Assembly (NCBI RefSeq): GCF_056712565.1
Contig: NZ_CM160072.1
Length of the DNA: 64,000 nucleotides
Reading direction: 5' to 3' (one strand)
Shown: positions 3,617 through 58,679 of the stretch, piece after piece
Layout of the letters: every line of letters begins with the position of its first letter
Numbering within the stretch: position 1 is the first letter of the stretch
Notes under the pieces: model-generated
The model's input: the letters and a program-made list of their open reading frames with translations, nothing else
What the model was told of the DNA's origin: nothing
Database searches by the model: none
Translations under genes and position numbers: made by a program

Positions 3617-4165
3617 TTATTCAGTTTCAACGCGTTCGCGTATCACCACTGCGGGATTCCCCCGGCAAACCACATTTGCCGGAAGCGATTTAAAAACACT
3701 GCTTCGCGCACCCACGACGGTGCCGTCGCCGATCGTGACGCCAGGGGCAACAAAAACATCTGTCGCCAGCCAGCATTTCTCGCCAATCACAATAGGCGTG
3801 GCGTTAATGGTGAAATGTTGACTTGCATGGTCGTGGCTCCCGGTGCATAAATAACTTTTTTGCGATATCACCGAATGTGCGCCAATGGTTATTTCACCGA
3901 GGGTATATAAATTGACGTCATCGCCGACCCACGCGTAATCACCTAAGGTTAATTTCCACGGATAGGTAATTTTTACTGACGGACGAATAACTACGTTTTT
4001 TCCTATTTTTGCGCCGAATAAACGTAATAAAAATGCCCGCCAGCGATACAATACTTGTGGCGACCAGGCAAATATTGTTGCCTGTACTGCCCACCACAAT
4101 TGCACTTTAATAGCGTTGCCACCCCGGAACCCTTTCGGCACCGAGAATCCACTTAAATCCTGCAT
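3617..4165 (-). CDS. wcaF: Colanic acid O-acetyltransferase (hexapeptide-repeat)
   Basis: 182 aa with a left-handed beta-helix type repeat region (IGAHSVISQKSYLCTGSHD...VAPGVTIGDGTVVGARSSV). Cluster position. Confidence 0.88.
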   Translation of the reverse strand: MQDLSGFSVPKGFRGGNAIKVQLWWAVQATIFAWSPQVLYRWRAFLLRLFGAKIGKNVVIRPSVKITYPWKLTLGDYAWVGDDVNLYTLGEITIGAHSVISQKSYLCTGSHDHASQHFTINATPIVIGEKCWLATDVFVAPGVTIGDGTVVGARSSVFKSLPANVVCRGNPAVVIRERVETE

Positions 4166-4180
4166 CGTTTTCCCTTATAT

Positions 4181-4936
4181 TCAGCTTTTGTTATATAAGG
4201 CTTTCGTCTTTGAGGTAGTACGTTGGCGTAAATGCCAGGATAATTCAGCCCAAAAGCCAGGCACGTGCAATATCTGCCGTTGGACTTTTTTGGCGTCAGC
4301 ACACAATTCCATATTATTGGTGGTAGATACCCCACCCATGGAAAATTCAGACACCAGACCATTGAGTTTTTTAAATGCATAACCGGCTTTATACATTTTG
4401 GCCGCCAGCGCGTAGTCGGACGAAACTTTATATTCCAGGTCATAACGCCATTTTTTCAAGCCGGATACCGGGAAAAATATCGCCTGATGACTGGCGGGCA
4501 GGCTGTGATAAATATACCAGCCCGGTTTGGCGCTACGTTTAATTTTATGCCCGTCGCCAAAATCCAGCAGCGCATCGCCAGTGATCATCACGTTATCTTT
4601 TTGTACTTTTAACTTACGGACAAAATTTGCGGCATCCTGATGAAAAATATCACCTGAGTTGAGAAACAACGCGAACTTGCCTTGTGCCATCGCAATGCCT
4701 TTGTTCATGGCGTCGTAGATACCGTTATCTGGCTCGCTGACAAAGCGTAGGTTATAGATACCCTTGAGATTTTCCAGGTACTCACAGGTGCCGTCATTGG
4801 AACCGCCATCGACAACAATCCATTCGAAGCTGATATCGTCCGCCTGCGCCAGATGCGCCAGATGCGCCAGCGAGGCGTGTGTTTTGACTATCCCTGCGAG
4901 GTTACGAAACGCGACAGTGATTATGCTAAGCAACAT
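4181..4936 (-). CDS. wcaE: Colanic acid family-2 glycosyltransferase
   Basis: 251 aa starting [12 protein letters not shown], with DGGSNDGT and a DxD-type GT-A fold. Contains an in-frame 9-bp tandem duplication (see findings). Confidence 0.88.
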
Positions 4937-40231: not shown

Positions 40232-40564
40232 ATGGCTGGTTGGTTTGAACTCAGTAAGAGCAGTGATAATCAGTTCCGGTTTGTGCTAAAAGCGGGCAAT
40301 GGTGAGACTATCCTCACCAGCGAGCTGTATACCTCAAAAGCCTCTGCGGAAAAGGGCATCGCGTCGGTGCGTAGCAACAGCCCGCAAGAAGAACGCTATG
40401 AGAAAAAAACGGCAAGCAATGGCAAATTCTATTTCAATCTGAAAGCCGCCAATCATCAAATTATCGGCTCCAGCCAGATGTATGCCACCGCGCAATCTCG
40501 TGAAACCGGAATTGCCTCCGTTAAAGTAAATGGCACAAGCCAGACGGTGAAAGACAATACGTAA
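40232..40564 (+). CDS. yegP: DUF1508-repeat protein YegP
   Basis: Start set at MAGWFELSKSSDNQFRFVLKAGNGE, giving 110 aa, after SD AAGGAG. Two internal repeats (FRFVLKAGNGETILTSE / FYFNLKAANHQIIGSS). Confidence 0.88.
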   Translation: MAGWFELSKSSDNQFRFVLKAGNGETILTSELYTSKASAEKGIASVRSNSPQEERYEKKTASNGKFYFNLKAANHQIIGSSQMYATAQSRETGIASVKVNGTSQTVKDNT

Positions 40565-52406: not shown

Positions 52407-52925
52407 TCACAGGCCGATATTGCGGCGGTGTTGCTCCAGCCGGTCGACGCCGTTCACCTTCTCAATCATGTTGATGGTGTCGATTTCGACCAGCTCCTTA
52501 CCGTCCATCGTCAGCCGGAAATAGGTGCAGACCACGGAGATTTTCGACTCGGTGTCTTCTCCCTGTTTGCCCTCGCCGGTGTCGATTTCTTTCTGACGTC
52601 CACGCATGACCACCTCGACGGCCACCGTTTCGCCGGTATCGTCGCGCTGGTAAGAGCCTGCAAAACGAATCGGTACGGAATCCACACCGGTTGCGGCGTA
52701 AAGCTCCCAGATAACCGAATCCGGGAAGCCACCGAGCGACCACTCCATTGACAGCGCATCGTCATCAAGGCCGAGGTCTACCGGTGCGCTGCCGTTCATC
52801 CCCGCACCGCGATAGTTTTCGAGCTTACGGGTCAGTTTTGGTAGCGTGACGGACTTCGCGACGCCCTGATAGCTGTAGCCGTTCAGAAAGACGTTCATTA
52901 ACTTGAGTTTGCGCGGCATTGCCAT
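52407..52925 (-). CDS. FII: Tail tube protein FII
   Basis: 172 aa starting MAMPRKLKLMNVFLNGYSYQG, after SD TAAGGAG. Confidence 0.9.
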   Translation of the reverse strand: MAMPRKLKLMNVFLNGYSYQGVAKSVTLPKLTRKLENYRGAGMNGSAPVDLGLDDDALSMEWSLGGFPDSVIWELYAATGVDSVPIRFAGSYQRDDTGETVAVEVVMRGRQKEIDTGEGKQGEDTESKISVVCTYFRLTMDGKELVEIDTINMIEKVNGVDRLEQHRRNIGL

Positions 52926-54130
52926 CGGTCAGGCTCCTTATAATTGCTGTTAACCGAGGTGACCAGATTTGCCAGGTATTTATCGGTAATACGCTGGCGC
53001 AGGGTCAGGTTTTCAAGAGGAGGCACCGGTGTATAGTCGTAGTCGATATACAGTTTTCCGGCCTTGAGGGTTTCCGCATCGTTGGATTCTTCGCTGAACC
53101 AGCAGGTCGCATCCACGATATAGCCGTTTGTTTTCAGCTCACGGAATTTGGCATTGATGCCGTCAACGATGTCGCGAATCAGCGTTGCGGTGATGGGCTT
53201 GTCCACCGCCCACATGTGCGCCTCAGCCATCGTGTCAGCCAGTACCTGCGCGGTGCGGGTGTAGTTTTCAAAGAGGAACAGCGGGTCATCAGAGCAGGTA
53301 CGGTTACCCCAGAATCGGAAACCGTCGCGGCGAATCAGCGTAGTGACGCCTGACTCGTTAAGCAGGTCAGCATCGGTGCCGGACTCCTGCAAATCCCAGA
53401 ATACAGATGCGCTGATGCCGGTAACACCGTTTACCCCGACGTTGGACAGCGTTTTATGCCAGCCCTGCTCCTGGTCGATTTTAGCGCGCAGACCCAGCGC
53501 ACGGGCGGTGGCATACGCGGTAGCGGTGGTACTGGTGACCGTATCCCATGCGAGGAAATCCGGCCAGATGACCATCAGCTCACGCTGGCTGAAATTCTGG
53601 CGGTAGGCTTTCACCTCGGAAATGGTCTTACAGCCCCATGCGCTGATATATCCGAAAGCGCGCAGCTTCTGACAGACGGATGCCAGTGCAACAGCCACCT
53701 CTTTGGTATCCAGTCCCGGCACACCGAGAATACGCGGTTTAACACCGGTTACCGACTCCGCCGCCAGCAGGGCTTTTAGTCCGGTGTACTGACCGTTTTC
53801 GTCGGTGGTGCCGATGATATTGGAAACGGTCTGCGCGAGTTTCGTTTCCTCGTCATCACCGGTGCAGTCTTCCACGCGCACGACAACGGTGACCGGTTTT
53901 GACTGGTCAGCGATGGCCTGCAACGATGCCGCCAGCGTGCCTTTTTTACCGGCCTTTGCAATTGCGCTTTGCACATTGGTAATCAGCACCGGTTTATTGA
54001 GGGGGAAGGTTTCCGCATCCGCATCGCTGGCCGTGCAGACCATGCCGACAATGGCAGTGGATACGGTGGAAATGACGCGGGTGCCGTCGTTAATCTCCAG
54101 CACCTGCACGCCATGATGATAGTCACTCAT
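52898..54130 (-). CDS. FI: Contractile tail sheath protein FI
   Basis: 410 aa starting MSDYHHGVQVLEINDGTRVIS. The 3' end overlaps the FII start by 28 nt (see findings). Confidence 0.9.
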   Translation of the reverse strand: MSDYHHGVQVLEINDGTRVISTVSTAIVGMVCTASDADAETFPLNKPVLITNVQSAIAKAGKKGTLAASLQAIADQSKPVTVVVRVEDCTGDDEETKLAQTVSNIIGTTDENGQYTGLKALLAAESVTGVKPRILGVPGLDTKEVAVALASVCQKLRAFGYISAWGCKTISEVKAYRQNFSQRELMVIWPDFLAWDTVTSTTATAYATARALGLRAKIDQEQGWHKTLSNVGVNGVTGISASVFWDLQESGTDADLLNESGVTTLIRRDGFRFWGNRTCSDDPLFLFENYTRTAQVLADTMAEAHMWAVDKPITATLIRDIVDGINAKFRELKTNGYIVDATCWFSEESNDAETLKAGKLYIDYDYTPVPPLENLTLRQRITDKYLANLVTSVNSNYKEPDRWQCRANSS

Positions 54131-54225
54131 CCGTTTAACTCCGTGGTTAATGGGTACAACTATTTTCTGTTGTGCAGAGCATAAGACGCTATTTGACCTG
54201 GCTGGTCAGTGGATGAAACAACAGA

Positions 54226-54254
54226 TAAAGAAAAGGCGGGCAATTCGCCCGCCT
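54226..54254 (-). terminator. Rho-independent terminator for leftward transcription entering from the G/cargo side
   Basis: The minus strand reads AGGCGGGC-GAATT-GCCCGCCT followed by TTTCTTTA. Confidence 0.72.
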
Positions 54255-54312
54255 GTCCTGATTTGTACTCACTCATTTTCCGCCTGACAATTTACATAGC
54301 CCAAATGCTATC

Positions 54313-54331
54313 AAACCTGACAGTCTGCTTT
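54313..54331 (+). repeat. 19-bp dyad-symmetric site A (attL-like boundary of the cargo segment)
   Basis: AAACCTGACAGTCTGCTTT. Direct repeat of 57958-57976 (17/19, embedded in a roughly 26-nt similarity CTA(A)TCAAAsCTGACAGTCTGsTTTG). Confidence 0.55.
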
Positions 54332-54460
54332 GAGCGAAAAGTGGACATTAGAGTTACAAAAGCAAGTTTAAATCATCCAAAATATTACAATGTCCTTATC
54401 TATCTGATATCGTTATGATAAAAAGCTCCTGAATATAATCGATAGTAGGTGGTTATTTCC

Positions 54461-54838
54461 ATGAAATCAATTTTAGAGGTCTTTACTCAAGGAAATACTA
54501 AAGAAAAACTGGCTGTTATCGCCGATCTCACAACCATTGCGGGAATATCGATTGCAACTATTATTGCTGGTTTGTTAACCCTAGTTGCAAAAACAGATAA
54601 ACTAGATGTTGGAAATCTGTTTGGAGTTGTCATAATATCTCTGCTCGGATTGGCTGGTGTTTGCTGTTTTGTGGCCTTATTTATTTGGGTTATAACCCAA
54701 ATGTCTAAACCATGGGGAACACCTCGGGGGGTTCAGCCCTTAGTTAAGTGTGCTATTTCCCTTATCTTTATCTGTATGTTTTTGCTGGCTGTCTTTACAT
54801 TTTATGAGTTTATTTCTTCGATGAGCATACGCTATTGA
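54461..54838 (+). CDS. Small 3-TM membrane protein (cargo)
   Basis: ATG at 54461 after AGGTGG; the track starts at a GTG 12 nt earlier. 125 aa with three hydrophobic helices. A perfect TATAAT lies at 54434-54439. Confidence 0.6.
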   Translation: MKSILEVFTQGNTKEKLAVIADLTTIAGISIATIIAGLLTLVAKTDKLDVGNLFGVVIISLLGLAGVCCFVALFIWVITQMSKPWGTPRGVQPLVKCAISLIFICMFLLAVFTFYEFISSMSIRY

Positions 54839-54860
54839 ATATAAAATCAGCCCCCATAAC

Positions 54861-55445
54861 TTAAAAGAGACCTTCTATATCGACTTCAATGCCCAAATAA
54901 CGGACTGTGCTTTCCAGTTTCTTATGGCCCAACAGAAGTTGGATCACCCGGAGACTCTTGGTTTTCTTGTAGATTAAGTAAGGTTTTGTTCTTCTCATGG
55001 AATGTGTGCTGTACAGCGAATCTTCGAGACCAAGCTTTTCTACCCACCCATGAAAAATTCGGTTGTATTGCCGGGTTGATATATGGTGGTTAGTTCCGAC
55101 CCGAGAGCGGAACAGGAAGCCTTTACTATGCCAGTTGCCGAGCTTTATCAATGCAGTAACCGCTTCCCTTGTCCCTTTGGTTATCTCAAATTGGACAGGG
55201 CTGCCGGTTTTCTGTTGCAACACCGTTGCTCTGCTTGAGACAGAACTGCCATATGCAGCATCTGATACTTTGAGTTTGACCAAATCACAGCCCCGTAGCT
55301 TAGTGTCCAAAGCCATGTTGAACAGAGCTAGATCGCGTGTTTTACCTTCCAACTCAAGTCTAATCCGGATCCCCCAGATATGAAATATCTGAAGTGGCCT
55401 TTTTTGACCGATGGTACGGTCTTTATTCCACGGTGACGTTTTCAT
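54861..55445 (-). CDS. Small tyrosine recombinase / integrase (cargo)
   Basis: Start set at MKTSPWNKDR (ATG at 55445, SD AGGAG 8 nt upstream), giving 194 aa; the track uses a TTG 34 codons upstream. Catalytic signature: LRGCDL (Arg I), THSMRRT (H-x-x-R), LLGHKKLESTVRYL (His and the Tyr nucleophile). Confidence 0.8.
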   Translation of the reverse strand: MKTSPWNKDRTIGQKRPLQIFHIWGIRIRLELEGKTRDLALFNMALDTKLRGCDLVKLKVSDAAYGSSVSSRATVLQQKTGSPVQFEITKGTREAVTALIKLGNWHSKGFLFRSRVGTNHHISTRQYNRIFHGWVEKLGLEDSLYSTHSMRRTKPYLIYKKTKSLRVIQLLLGHKKLESTVRYLGIEVDIEGLF

Positions 55446-56291
55446 ATTCAAATCTCCTGCAATGTGGGAGATTTGAGTATGGTTGTCTCTCAAGAGCGAA
55501 AATAAGTCAACTATCACTAGTTGTTGCGCATGTACGTATTCTGTCAATTAATTATTGACAATCATCAATTCTGGAATGATCAAAATCATCATATCGAATT
55601 ATAGTCTGGTTGACTGTATCTATTGTTGGTGTCATTTCTGTTATAATATCCTGATAACCTAAAGAGTTAAATACATTTACTAAGGCCTCACACCGAAGGG
55701 CCGTAGCAATTACAAAATTATAAATTGCCAGCCGTTTATTTTCTTGTTTAACTGCAAGAATGAATTCGATAGCAGTATTTTCATCACTTTGGATTGCATT
55801 ATATAGAGATACTATATTTACCATATCATCAGAGAATGTATGTATTGAATCACAAAGGGGAACGTAATGGGCATGATAGTGTGTTTCCCAGCCAATTAAT
55901 TCAAAAAGTCTTCTGGTTCCTGGATATTCAGGTGTATTTGGCCACAATCTATTAAATAGATCAGTTAGTTCTTTTCCCATGCGAATCCTTTCATTTGCTG
56001 CTGGATTAGTCATTCCTTTGGATTTTAAACACTCCAGCCACCGTTTTCCATTACTATGAACTAATTTCTTACTAGCCTTGAGTAATGCTTGTGCATTTTC
56101 GCCATCATCTATTGCTATATAAAATTGATTGGCAGCCTGTTCTATTATAACCCTAGCTAATACTTCCGATGCTGAAAAGGCTCCTATATTCAAAGAAGAG
56201 ATAGCCTGATTACTAAGTTCATTCAGTACATTAAAGTACTGTAAGACCATCAATTTTTGTTCCACACCCTTTAGGTTGTCTGGATTTGCCC

Positions 56292-57197
56292 CTATATTTC
56301 CAGACACCTGTTATCACTTAACCCATTACTGGCTTGCTGCCGTAGATATTCCCGTGGCGAGCGATAACCCAGTGCACTATGCGGATGCCATTCGTTATAA
56401 TGCTCGAACGCCTCTGCAAGGTTCTTTGCTGCCGTTAACCCGTCTGGTTTGGGCATGACACTGATGTAGTCACGCTTTATCGTTTTCACGAAGCTCTCTG
56501 CTATGCCGTTACTCTCCGGACTCCGCACCGCCGTGCTCTTCGGTTCAAGCCCCAACATCCGGGCAAACTGCCGTGTTTCATTAGCCCGGTAGCATGAACC
56601 ATTATCCGTCAGCCACTCTACTGGAGACGCCGGAAGCTCGTTGCCGAAGCGGCGTTCCACCGCTCCCAGCATGACGTCCTGTACTGTTTCACTGTTGAAG
56701 CCGCCCGTAGTGACCGCCCAGTGCAGTGCCTCACGGTCACAGCAGTCCAGCGCGAACGTGACTCGCAGTTTTTCTCCGTTATCACAGCGGAACTCGAACC
56801 CGTCAGAGCACCATCGCTGATTACTTTCTTTCACAGCCACTCTGCCTGTATGTGCCCGTTTCGATGGCGGTACAGCAGGTTTTCGCTCAAGCAACAGCGC
56901 ATTCTGGCGCATGATCCGGTAAACACGTTTGGCATTGATCGCAGGCATACCATCAAGTTCTGCCTGTCTGCGAAGCAGCGCCCATACCCGACGATAACCA
57001 TACGTGGGCAGCTCTCCGATAACATGGTGTATACGGAGAAGCACATCCGTATCATCAGTGTGACGACTGCGGCGGCCATCCATCCAGTCATCGGTTCGTC
57101 TGAGAATGACGTGCAACTGCGCACGCGACACCCGGAGACAACGGCTGACTAAGCTTACTCCCCATCCCCGGGCAATAAGGGCGCGTGCGCTATCCAC
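56292..57197 (-). CDS. insD: IS2 OrfB (InsD) DDE transposase, made as an OrfAB fusion by -1 frameshift
   Basis: 301 aa. Slippery A_AAA_AAG at 57197-57203 in the orfA/orfB overlap. Confidence 0.92.
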
Positions 57198-57520
57198 TTT
57201 TTTGCCCGTCCATATTCAACGGCTTCTTTGAGGAGTTCATTTTCCATCGTTTTCTTGCCGAGCAGGCGCTGGAGTTCTTTAATCTGCTTCATGGCGGCAG
57301 CAAGTTCAGAGGCAGGAACAACCTGTTCTCCGGCGGCGACAGCAGTAAGACTTCCTTCCTGGTATTGCTTACGCCAGAGAAATAACTGGCTGGCTGCTAC
57401 ACCATGTTGCCGGGCAACGAGGGAGACCGTCATCCCTGGTTCAAAGCTCTGCTGAACAATTGCGATCTTTTCCTGTGTGGTACGCCGTCTGCGTTTCTCC
57501 GGTCCTAAGACATCAATCAT
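57155..57520 (-). CDS. insC: IS2 OrfA (InsC), HTH protein
   Basis: Start set at [26 protein letters not shown], giving 121 aa. Confidence 0.92.
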
Positions 57521-57957
57521 CTGCTCTCCAATGACTAGTCTAAAAACTAGTATTAAGACTATCACTTAAATAAGTGATATTGGTTGTCTGGAGATTCAGG
57601 GGGCCAGTCTATTGTCTATTTTATTTTTATGCTCCTCAAATTTTGCATGGATATATTTATTTATCGCGGCTATTTTTTTTACATCTTCGTCAAGATCAAA
57701 CGGGCAACGTCCAAACAATTCTTTTTTCATATATTTCTCCTGTTGTACAAGCTTCCATAAGTTGGCAGATTATACACTGAAGATTACCTATAAATAGCTG
57801 TGCGGGATAGCAGATCAGTGCAAGAAGTACAACCAAGTGAACTGTGCGTATTCAGATACCTGGCCTAACGTTCGCGATAGCCGTCCCCTGCACGAAGCCA
57901 TATATTAGATGTATTAGCTCAGACCTTATCTGACAGGTTGAGTAGGTAGAATCTAAT

Positions 57958-57976
57958 CAAAGCTGACAGTCTGGTT
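57958..57976 (+). repeat. 19-bp dyad-symmetric site B (attR-like boundary of the cargo segment)
   Basis: AAAGCTGACAGTCTGGTTT, a direct repeat of site A. A lone half-site-like GACAGGTTG lies at 57931-57939. Confidence 0.55.
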
Positions 57977-58080
57977 TGGACTGTGAGTTCAACCGATGGA
58001 TGCAACACACAGCGATCTACGGACATTACTAGCATAGCTGTGTATTAATCATCGGGAAGCAGGTCAGTCCGCTCCTAGCA

Positions 58081-58099
58081 CAGAGCAGACTGTCAGATT
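58081..58099 (-). repeat. Third, inverted copy of the site (site C), in the loop of a 9-bp hairpin downstream of G
   Basis: The plus strand AGAGCAGACTGTCAGATTA matches 16/19 of the reverse complement of site A. It is flanked by AGCACAGAG / CTCTGTGCT (58077-58116). Confidence 0.45.
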
Positions 58100-58151
58100 A
58101 GGCTTTACTCTGTGCTATAGATACGTTAGCTCACTCCAGAGATCATACAAC

Positions 58152-58679
58152 TTATTGCGGCATTTCCGGCCATTCAGGATTTGCAGGATCCACACGGCTG
58201 ACCAGAACACTGTAGCGTTCCCATGCTTCCAGTCGGCTACGCTCCTCATCTGTTGCCATATTCAGTCTGACAGAGCGTTCCAGTGGCTGAATGATAGTTT
58301 CAGCTTCGGAAAGCAAAGCTGACTTCTGTAATTCCGCCAGTTGCAGCTGTTCGTCTGCCGTATAAATCCGCTTAATCACGGCACCATCCTTAAACATCCA
58401 TTTACCTGAGTCATCAGCACGTCGGTTGGCGGTAATATCAGGAACCTCGACAACGCTAAAACCTTCAGGGTTGAGCGTTGAAGCATCTCTGGTGATGCCG
58501 ACAATTATATTATTCTCATCGTAAACAATCTTTATCGTGTCTTCCTGAAAATTACTTACTTCCTCATACCAGTTTTTTCCCTCTTCGGACCATAACCAGA
58601 TAACATCAAAATTTTTTGTCAGTTGATATTGGGCAACAGTTTTTGGATTACCCGCAGTAATATTTTTTAAATGCTGCAT
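58152..58679 (-). CDS. G: Tail fibre assembly chaperone (gpG position; Tfa/Mu-U type)
   Basis: 175 aa immediately downstream of the fibre gene. C-terminus ...[25 protein letters not shown] is typical of the Tfa family. Confidence 0.85.

Follow-up and report, generated by a model that had tools for sequence, protein, structure and literature searches.

The interval at positions 54313-57976 of a 64,000-nucleotide (nt) stretch of contig NZ_CM160072.1 (assembly GCF_056712565.1; this whole stretch is the window) lies between the tail-fibre assembly gene G (Caudo_TAP, 58152-58679) and the sheath gene FI (52898-54130), both on the minus strand of a P2-like prophage, which is the Z/fun position. We read this interval, with a probability of roughly 0.6, as a Z/fun cassette slot bounded by two inward-facing heterospecific core sites, at which a small tyrosine recombinase would pair sites with like centres and swap cassettes. 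The two 24-bp cores were defined as type 1, GTCCGCT-YY-GTGCCAG-RA-GCGGAC, and type 2, GTCCGCT-RT-GAGCGAG-RA-GCGGAC; each is an inverted-arm palindrome with arms of 7-9 bp (GTCCGCT / AGCGGAC). Short palindromes of this kind are typical of the core sites of tyrosine recombinases. In the window, a site scan found well-scoring cores at two places only, repeat A on the FI side and copy C on the G side, which form the arms of a 33-nt inverted repeat (54314-54346 versus 58067-58099). The sole other core-like 24-mer of the window, TTCCGGTTTGTGCTAAAAGCGGGC at 40274-40297 (6 mismatches), is probably a chance match.

The extent of the slot follows from relatives carrying different cargo between G and FI. 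A query with the FI-proximal 350 nt matched 920 E. coli genomes, of which 44 had the cargo of the window. In nearly all genomes with other cargo the similarity ran from FI through A and ended at 54337-54352, and on the G side it began at 58067-58078, so that C was included and repeat B, the 19-mer lying inside the cargo, was excluded. These alignments assign A and C to the backbone and B to the cargo. Conservation of the FI-side inverted repeat extends to about 900 E. coli genomes whose cargo is unrelated; of 80 P2-like viral loci, on contigs retrieved with the sheath protein as query, 45 have it. The flanks of the window align to the GenBank records AJ512677 and AJ512685, in which these sequences are annotated as the 'right' and 'left inverted repeat' of the Z region, and in the fun(Z) region of phage P2 the G side reads GTCCACTCTGTGCCAAAAGCGGAC and the FI side the reverse complement of GTTTCCTTTGAGCGAGAAGCGGAA, which correspond to a type-1 and a type-2 core. 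Several of the viral contigs (L127, L095, L157, L137, L155, L161) had G directly upstream of FI and no slot; in this empty junction the stop codon of G is about 8 nt from the terminator preceding the FI promoter region, GCCCGCCTGT-RTT-TATTGCGG. A search of the empty G-FI junctions for the 19-mer found no copy, so that the whole slot, with flanks of about 80 nt and both sites, is an insertion relative to those genomes.

These observations bear on a sequence-only reading of the same DNA, in which A and B had been taken as attL and attR hybrids bounding a self-integrating mini-element of 3.66 kb, produced by crossover within the shared sequence CTGACAGTCTG. Its description of the parts held up: A was found at its given place, and the 194-codon recombinase open reading frame (ORF), the 280-codon gene directly upstream of it (DUF5677, once the insertion sequence is removed), the convergent 125-amino-acid (aa) membrane-type ORF and the insertion sequence, for which 'IS2' was that reading's name, were all borne out (Table 1). 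The sequence of B is also present, one base to the right of the 57958-57976 given for it. The mini-element itself we consider extremely improbable. As such an element would have it, A agrees with B at 17 of 19 bases and the recombinase gene lies between them, but A stays with the backbone in about 900 genomes with other cargo, while B is specific to the cargo, and the segment consists of two independent cassettes. An empty site retaining one copy of the direct repeat had been predicted, and the vacant junctions, which do exist, contain none. The supposedly reciprocal difference between A and B dissolves on alignment, since position 4 is a lineage polymorphism (T in most P2-like relatives, which read AAATCTGACAG) and the G at position 16 of B deviates from the C of the family consensus. 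Nor does the 19-mer behave as a palindrome when folded as DNA (0 to -1.3 kcal/mol, not better than shuffles). The sequence CTGACAGTCTG occurs exactly three times in the 64 kb (four matches with at most one mismatch, versus 0.66 expected); the third exact occurrence, inverted at 58086-58096, is copy C, which the mini-element leaves out of account. Across the family, moreover, crossover maps to GAGCGAG / GTGCCAG and not to CTGACAGTCTG (see below).

Related sites were found around homologues of the recombinase, as the sequence-only reading had anticipated. We examined 80 recombinase loci from a scan of one genome per species (913 kb in total; protein identity 72-96%), mostly from Enterobacterales with a few from other gammaproteobacteria such as Pseudomonas, Idiomarina, Colwellia and Alteromonas. 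They contained 337 cores, versus 0 in shuffles, which mark off the cassettes of ordered arrays, and the central heptamers fell into two sharp classes, GTGCCA[GA] (n=129) and GAGCGA[GAT] (n=140). With few exceptions, type 1 shared the strand of the recombinase gene and type 2 occupied the opposite one. Among 42 close site pairs, 40 read type 2 then type 1, 38-43 nt from start to start; such a junction consists of a type-2 site, a spacer of 14-19 nt and a type-1 site, and cassettes have the form type 1 ... type 2 (n=84, median 1.5 kb). In the P2-like loci (n=80) the slot has its type-1 site next to G and its type-2 site next to FI, and slots with more than one cassette (L089, L123, L128, L135, L141, L154 and the E. 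coli locus L002) had a composite junction between the cassettes. The recombinase gene is preceded by an outward type-2 site, 63 nt from its start, and followed after its stop by an outward type-1 site, and thus fills the spacer of a junction; directly after the stop codon, about 70 of the 80 loci read GGTTGTCAGGGCTGCAACAGCAGCCCTGTGCCAGAAGCGGAC-RTT (...CCCTGTGCCAGAAGCGGAC-RTT, the type-1 site) and then turn to unrelated DNA, and this stop-adjacent motif is repeated many times per locus. In the window, the degenerate core at 55485-55508 holds the position of the '<2' site seen in most recombinase loci. A sigma-54 promoter reading of the TGGCAC present in the cores was ruled out by its spacing, by inspection.

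The paired arrangement of the cores also admits a substrate of folded single-stranded DNA, as in integron attC, with the junction forming one long imperfect hairpin. By hand pairing, the reverse complement of the type-2 core pairs with the type-1 core at 21 of 24 positions (3 mismatches), the 66-nt junction has a stable predicted DNA fold (-18.5 kcal/mol, z = -4.3), and the arrays resemble integron arrays. The predicted minimum-energy fold, however, is made of two separate short hairpins and not of the long one, both arms are kept in sequence and not merely in structure, which suggests duplex recognition, and the recombinase scores 18 bits with integron-integrase models whose cut-offs are 265-435. 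A single-stranded substrate is in our judgement very unlikely.

Exchange at the cores was traced with one representative per distinct cargo (31-32 cargo types). Column identity of the backbone stayed at 94% or above through the sixth base of the heptamer, fell to 47-55% at the next two positions, was intermediate across the outer arm and reached about 35% in the cargo. On the FI side (32 cargo types) it was at least 94% through GAGCGA and then 47%; on the G side (31 cargo types) the backbone was kept through GTGCCA and then dropped to 48-55%. Whole cassettes recurred on different platforms. The recombinase-adjacent cassette of an E. coli lambdoid, Qin-like prophage (L087) is 99.1% identical over 1917 of 1917 bp to the cassette of a P2 slot (L142) and encodes the validated defence gene PD-T7-1 (E 7e-157; L087 15885-17234, L142 4864-6780), and a cassette of an Erwinia array (L061) is 92.5% identical over 984 of 984 bp to that of another P2 slot (L096). 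More shared-cassette pairs were found across genera and at different array positions; in two pairs (L015/L042 and L033/L062) the identity stops inside the type-2 core, after ...TCGCTCA. The recombinase-adjacent cassette of CFT073 matches HEC-08. Read across the aligned loci, these comparisons show transfer of cassettes from one platform to another, the breakpoints lying at the centre of the core, and they support the broader idea of the sequence-only reading, that of site-specific, recombinase-type cassette exchange at this locus.

Exchange of this kind could also come about by general or relaxed homologous recombination between the flanks of about 90-110 nt, with no dedicated recombinase and with the palindromes serving as terminators or structural elements. 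The flanks are well conserved among P2-like phages, and relaxed homologous recombination is a documented source of phage mosaicism (PMC3945230). Yet the breakpoints of 31-32 independent cargo types are confined to about 2 nt of a 24-bp core, identical cassettes occur in P2 slots, in a lambdoid prophage and in chromosomal arrays of other genera that have nothing in common outside the cores, and a strictly oriented grammar of two site classes would not be expected; we therefore regard this route as unlikely.

The candidate enzyme matches PF00589 with 65 bits (cut-off 27.1) over residues 35-184, passes the superfamily threshold and shows, by inspection of the ORF, the catalytic motifs LRGCDL, QQKTG, HSMRR, LGH and VRY. 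Only 34 residues precede the catalytic-domain match, and the N-terminal core-binding domain of the Xer, Cre and lambda Int type is probably absent. The full-length family protein has 200 aa and ends ...RYLGIEVDDALEISESIEV, while in the window RYLGIEVD is followed directly by IEGLF, which replaces the last 12 residues of the 200-aa form; the type-1 site that should follow is deleted. Scores were far below the cut-offs of integron-integrase models (NF011946, 18.3 bits versus 435; TIGR02249, 18.2 versus 265), of the Xer equivalogs (XerC, 43 bits versus 335; XerD, 25.6 versus 330) and of the DNA-invertase model NF007371 (22.9 bits versus 222). A PDB sequence search gave no match at E < 0.001, and the database names in the recombinase cluster (3385 members) are all generic. 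Of 5426 complete E. coli genomes, about 970 have DNA that is 88-90% identical to the recombinase gene, in most cases with no DUF5677; examples lie in an island of CFT073 and in a Qin-like prophage. Upstream, a hairpin with a 14-bp stem covers the GGAG and the AUG of the gene (z = -2.7, RNA fold), and its sequence is kept upstream of the gene in other loci, which suggests that the recombinase is under tight translational control or repression. In two loci (L083 and L084, from Colwellia and Pseudoalteromonas) the hairpin GGGCTGCAACAGCAGCCC, which precedes the gene-proximal type-1 half-site, is changed to GAGGCAGATAATCTGCCTC, with both strands altered and the pairing kept. A protein search of 72,556 plasmids found homologues of 43-64% identity on 444 of them, in alpha-, beta- and gammaproteobacteria, with hosts including Sinorhizobium, Phaeobacter and Cupriavidus (pMOL30). 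On a possible link to the 'xerC' of mcr-10 (PMC7067168), the same plasmid search gave no mcr-linked match; the xerC sequence itself was not compared, and this lead was dropped, not excluded.

It is improbable, in our assessment, that the cores are real and are used by another enzyme, such as host XerCD, P2 Int or some other protein, with the small recombinase being a frequent cargo. Most P2 slots have no recombinase in cis, as this would predict, and Xer-dependent modules and IMEX elements provide a precedent for host-driven module exchange. Across genera, however, essentially all loci have the recombinase gene enclosed by a type-2 and a type-1 core of constant polarity, and its fixed place inside the junction argues for a cognate pair of recombinase and site; in addition, the cores are unlike E. 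coli dif (by inspection), and no other recombinase recurs in the loci examined. We give next to no credence to an invertible switch with A and C as its ends and a FimB-like invertase acting on them. A and C are inverted repeats and the recombinase has the size of FimB/FimE, but the two sites differ in the central heptamer, the cargo has a single orientation relative to FI and G in 35-36 of 35-36 genomes that carry it, and the score with the invertase model is only about a tenth of its cut-off.

We infer from the arrangement and the breakpoints that the recombinase of the slot and arrays is the catalyst of a circle-and-swap pathway. It would bind the arms, pair sites with like centres and exchange strands in the central heptamer. 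With crossover in the heptamer, a cassette would take its outer arm along and leave the inner arm on the platform. Neighbouring like sites would act as direct repeats and release a cassette with one junction as a circle, which may enter any like site; as the centres at the two ends of a cassette are unlike, a single cassette would be neither inverted nor lost, and two successive events would amount to a net cassette swap. Such a scheme would account for slots with a single cassette, for slots with composite junctions and for a slot that gains a recombinase-bearing junction.

Several observations weigh against this swapping scheme. The recombinase is missing from 79 of the 80 P2-like viral loci and, as its count in E. 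coli shows, from most genomes of that species, so that it would have to act in trans. The recombinase of the window, being altered at its C-terminus, is uninformative on activity. The site next to the stop codon has a GGGCTGC...GCAGCCC hairpin in place of the usual inner arm, so that the binding logic is not uniform. Homologues on Cupriavidus pMOL30 and a Phaeobacter plasmid (L170, L171; 57-64%) have a hairpin after the stop and no clear core of the enterobacterial type, and we thus claim the site grammar for gammaproteobacteria only. In the P2-like loci L093, L094 and L146 the FI-side core ends after GAGCGAG, without the outer arm; these may be products of an aberrant or secondary-site event. 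Finally, 30 type 1-type 1 and 30 type 2-type 2 neighbour pairs fall outside the simple grammar and may reflect undetected degenerate sites.

In the window, the segment is made of two separable cassettes and a recombinase-bearing junction, now decayed. The cassette coding for the protein with three transmembrane segments (3-TM) occurs without the recombinase in L002, L128 and L135, where it is the second of two cassettes, beside a DUF6650 cassette, and has the same outer arm AAAAGTGGAC-ATTAGAG behind the internal junction. Its terminator hairpin AAAAGAGGCCTTCTATAAGGTCTCTTTT is whole in these three loci, and in the window it is broken after CCTTCTATA and fused to codon 189 of the recombinase. 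Conversely, L003, from a lambdoid prophage, and L006, from a Buttiauxella chromosome, have the recombinase-DUF5677 pair without the 3-TM cassette. The DUF5677 cassette through 58066, B included, aligns base for base with the Buttiauxella copy, and its leader also with the lambdoid one; the stretch shared with Buttiauxella starts inside the type-1 core, between ...AGGAGCGGAC and TGACCTGC. With the insertion sequence (IS) and one TTGTC copy removed, the DUF5677 frame reads through for 280 codons. At least 35 complete genomes besides that of E. coli ATCC 11775 have this IS-free form as one contiguous stretch, as ATCC 11775 does. The 3-TM protein had no match in Pfam, PADLOC or NCBIfam and the DUF5677 protein none in PADLOC or NCBIfam; run on the 3-TM, DUF5677 and recombinase proteins of the window, PADLOC returned no match to a defence model.

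The slot would originally have read type 2 -> 3-TM cassette <- type 1, recombinase, type 2 -> DUF5677 cassette <- type 1. A later deletion, not at a site, would have joined the 3-TM terminator to the recombinase at codon 189 and removed the type-1 site of the recombinase, and insertion of the IS would then have split DUF5677. The window copy is probably inert; a recombinase made elsewhere in the cell and acting in trans could still swap it.

Repeat B resembles A over the 5' extension and the inner arm only and is regarded, from its position and sequence, as a half-site or footprint inside the DUF5677 leader. A reading of B and the distal ...CGATCTACGGAC as one core split by a 32-nt insert was tried and rejected, with 13-14 of 24 consensus positions agreeing by hand count. 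The 32-nt segment adjoining B (57982-58013), CTGTGAGTTCAACCGATGGATGCAACACACAG, has inverted ends and is also present in L001 (at about 4020-4050); in L016 (at about 4853-4882) it lies reversed against the type-1 outer half CCAGAAGCGGAC. In L001 (NZ_CM194837.1, 3940-4160) the leader containing B stands upstream of an 858-aa AAA ATPase, in an island that also has an integrase, a replication gene and a serine recombinase. Within the same leader, the box GGGGAGCAGGTCA (58054-58066 in the window) has 80 copies in L006-L085, often preceded by RTTRCTAAC...TTAATCA; 39 cases are at most 90 nt from a site, and 27 of these 39 lie 28-30 nt inside cassettes, next to either core type. The box could represent either an accessory site element or a leader that cassettes have in common.

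Table 1. Coordinates of the slot, its sites and its cargo in the window.
Feature	Coordinates	Strand	Basis and remarks
FI-side inverted repeat, Z/fun slot backbone	54256..54346	+	matches 91-nt 'right inverted repeat' of AJ512677, AJ512685
Repeat A, AAACCTGACAGTCTGCTTT	54313-54331		inside FI-side inverted repeat
24-bp type-2 core GTCTGCT TT GAGCGAA AA GTGGAC	54323..54346	+	points into cargo; 4 mismatches to type-2 consensus
3-TM cassette, 3' end cut within terminator hairpin	54347..54880	+	ORF 54461-54838, 125 aa
Small tyrosine recombinase, 194 aa	54861..55445	-	PF00589, E 9.6e-18
Hairpin pairing recombinase ribosome-binding site and start codon	55443..55481	-	inverted repeat and RNA fold
Degenerate type-2 core GTCTCTC AA GAGCGAA AA TAAGTC	55485..55508	+	about 10 mismatches to consensus (by inspection)
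DUF5677 gene, IS-split	55552..57732	-	exons 55552-56280 and 57617-57732; restored 280 aa, PF18928 E 8e-10
IS3-family insertion sequence, 1331 bp	56281..57611	-	TTGTC target duplication, terminal repeats, rve and HTH_Tnp_1
DUF5677 cassette 5' leader	57733..58066	-	holds repeat B and box GGGAAGCAGGTCA (58054-58066)
Repeat B, AAAGCTGACAGTCTGGTTT	57959-57977		within DUF5677 leader
24-bp type-1 core GTCTGCT CT GTGCTAG GA GCGGAC	58067..58090	-	points into cargo; 3 mismatches (site scan)
G-side inverted repeat, slot backbone; overlaps end of gene G	58067..58179	-	matches 113-nt 'left inverted repeat' of AJ512677, AJ512685
Third copy, C	58082-58100		inverted relative to A; inside G-side inverted repeat

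Beside the slot, the sheath ORF has 410 aa in the window and in L088, and in 70 other viral loci the match ends at residue 395-396 (window 52898-52940); the alignments point to a C-terminal extension or altered stop in the lineage of the window. An Rfam scan of 54000-58400 with E up to 1 gave no match.

P2-like prophages serve as a major reservoir of genes for anti-phage defence, and the cassette slot offers a testable mechanism for one of the two P2 hotspots, with defined 24-bp sites, a defined crossover position and a candidate enzyme in roughly a fifth of E. coli genomes. PD-T7-1 provides a direct example, as the same defence cassette occupies a P2 slot and, in a lambdoid prophage, the place beside the recombinase gene. 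If the proposal is true, the sites are a search key for unannotated defence cassettes, explain the exchange of cargo between unrelated mobile elements and provide a compact natural two-site tool for cassette exchange. A wider proposition is put forward tentatively: that Enterobacterales and related gammaproteobacteria possess a platform, so far not described as such, in which a 200-aa tyrosine recombinase with a catalytic domain only acts through two heterospecific 24-bp cores (GTGCCAG, GAGCGAG), so that cassettes with defence genes are excised, inserted and exchanged between the P2 Z/fun slot, plasmids, lambdoid prophages and chromosomal arrays. Such a platform would parallel in nature the cassette exchange practised in the laboratory, and would supply the missing mechanism of rapid defence swapping at a P2 hotspot.

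The closest known case is the Z/fun region of P2 itself (Nilsson, Karlsson, Haggard-Ljungquist 2004, Mol Biol Evol 21:1), which is the same G-FI locus with the same inverted repeats holding A and C. Contrary to the sequence-only reading, which knew of no description of exchange at this locus, Nilsson et al. 2004 had proposed, as summarised in PMC8987985, that foreign genes enter the Z region by site-specific recombination; the slot, the inverted repeats and the idea of site-specific exchange have thus been known since 2004. The GenBank records of P2 Z/fun and later summaries name no recombinase, no two core types, no arrays outside P2 and no recombinase in the slot, and a 2026 survey of the P2 and P4 hotspots left the recombination process unresolved. 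The link to a recombinase, the two core classes, the arrays outside P2 and the exchange pathway appear to be new, and part of this may stand in Nilsson et al. 2004. Searches of the full-text literature with the core sequences returned unrelated papers only, and no named integron-like or cassette-exchange system was found in the literature on Enterobacterales.

Among other systems, integrons likewise place a tyrosine recombinase beside an ordered array of short co-oriented cassettes, with structured imperfect palindromes between cassettes, a recombinase-adjacent site that differs from the inter-cassette sites and a cargo that includes anti-phage defence genes. In contrast to integrons, the protein described here is a 200-aa recombinase, probably with a catalytic domain only, that fails IntI models, its sites are two kinds of sequence-conserved 24-bp core with a 14-19-nt spacer instead of attC, the site lies downstream of the recombinase gene, and the cassette genes run in either direction with leaders of their own. 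Recombinase-mediated cassette exchange with heterospecific lox or FRT sites relies in the same way on identical arms and incompatible spacers, and swaps a cassette without excision or inversion; that, however, is a laboratory design with Cre or Flp, while the incompatibility of GTGCCAG and GAGCGAG proposed here is deduced from two base differences. The pdif modules of Acinetobacter plasmids and IMEX elements are also small modules that pass from one replicon to another and have short inverted recombination sites at their ends, but they use host XerC/XerD and dif-like 28-bp sites, whereas the cores described here are by inspection unlike dif and the arrays have a dedicated recombinase. The R64 shufflon (Rci, sfx) shares a tyrosine recombinase acting on asymmetric short sites, and the sfx core GTGCCAA may resemble the type-1 centre GTGCCA(G/A); the shufflon differs in that Rci has about 384 aa and inverts segments of one gene only.

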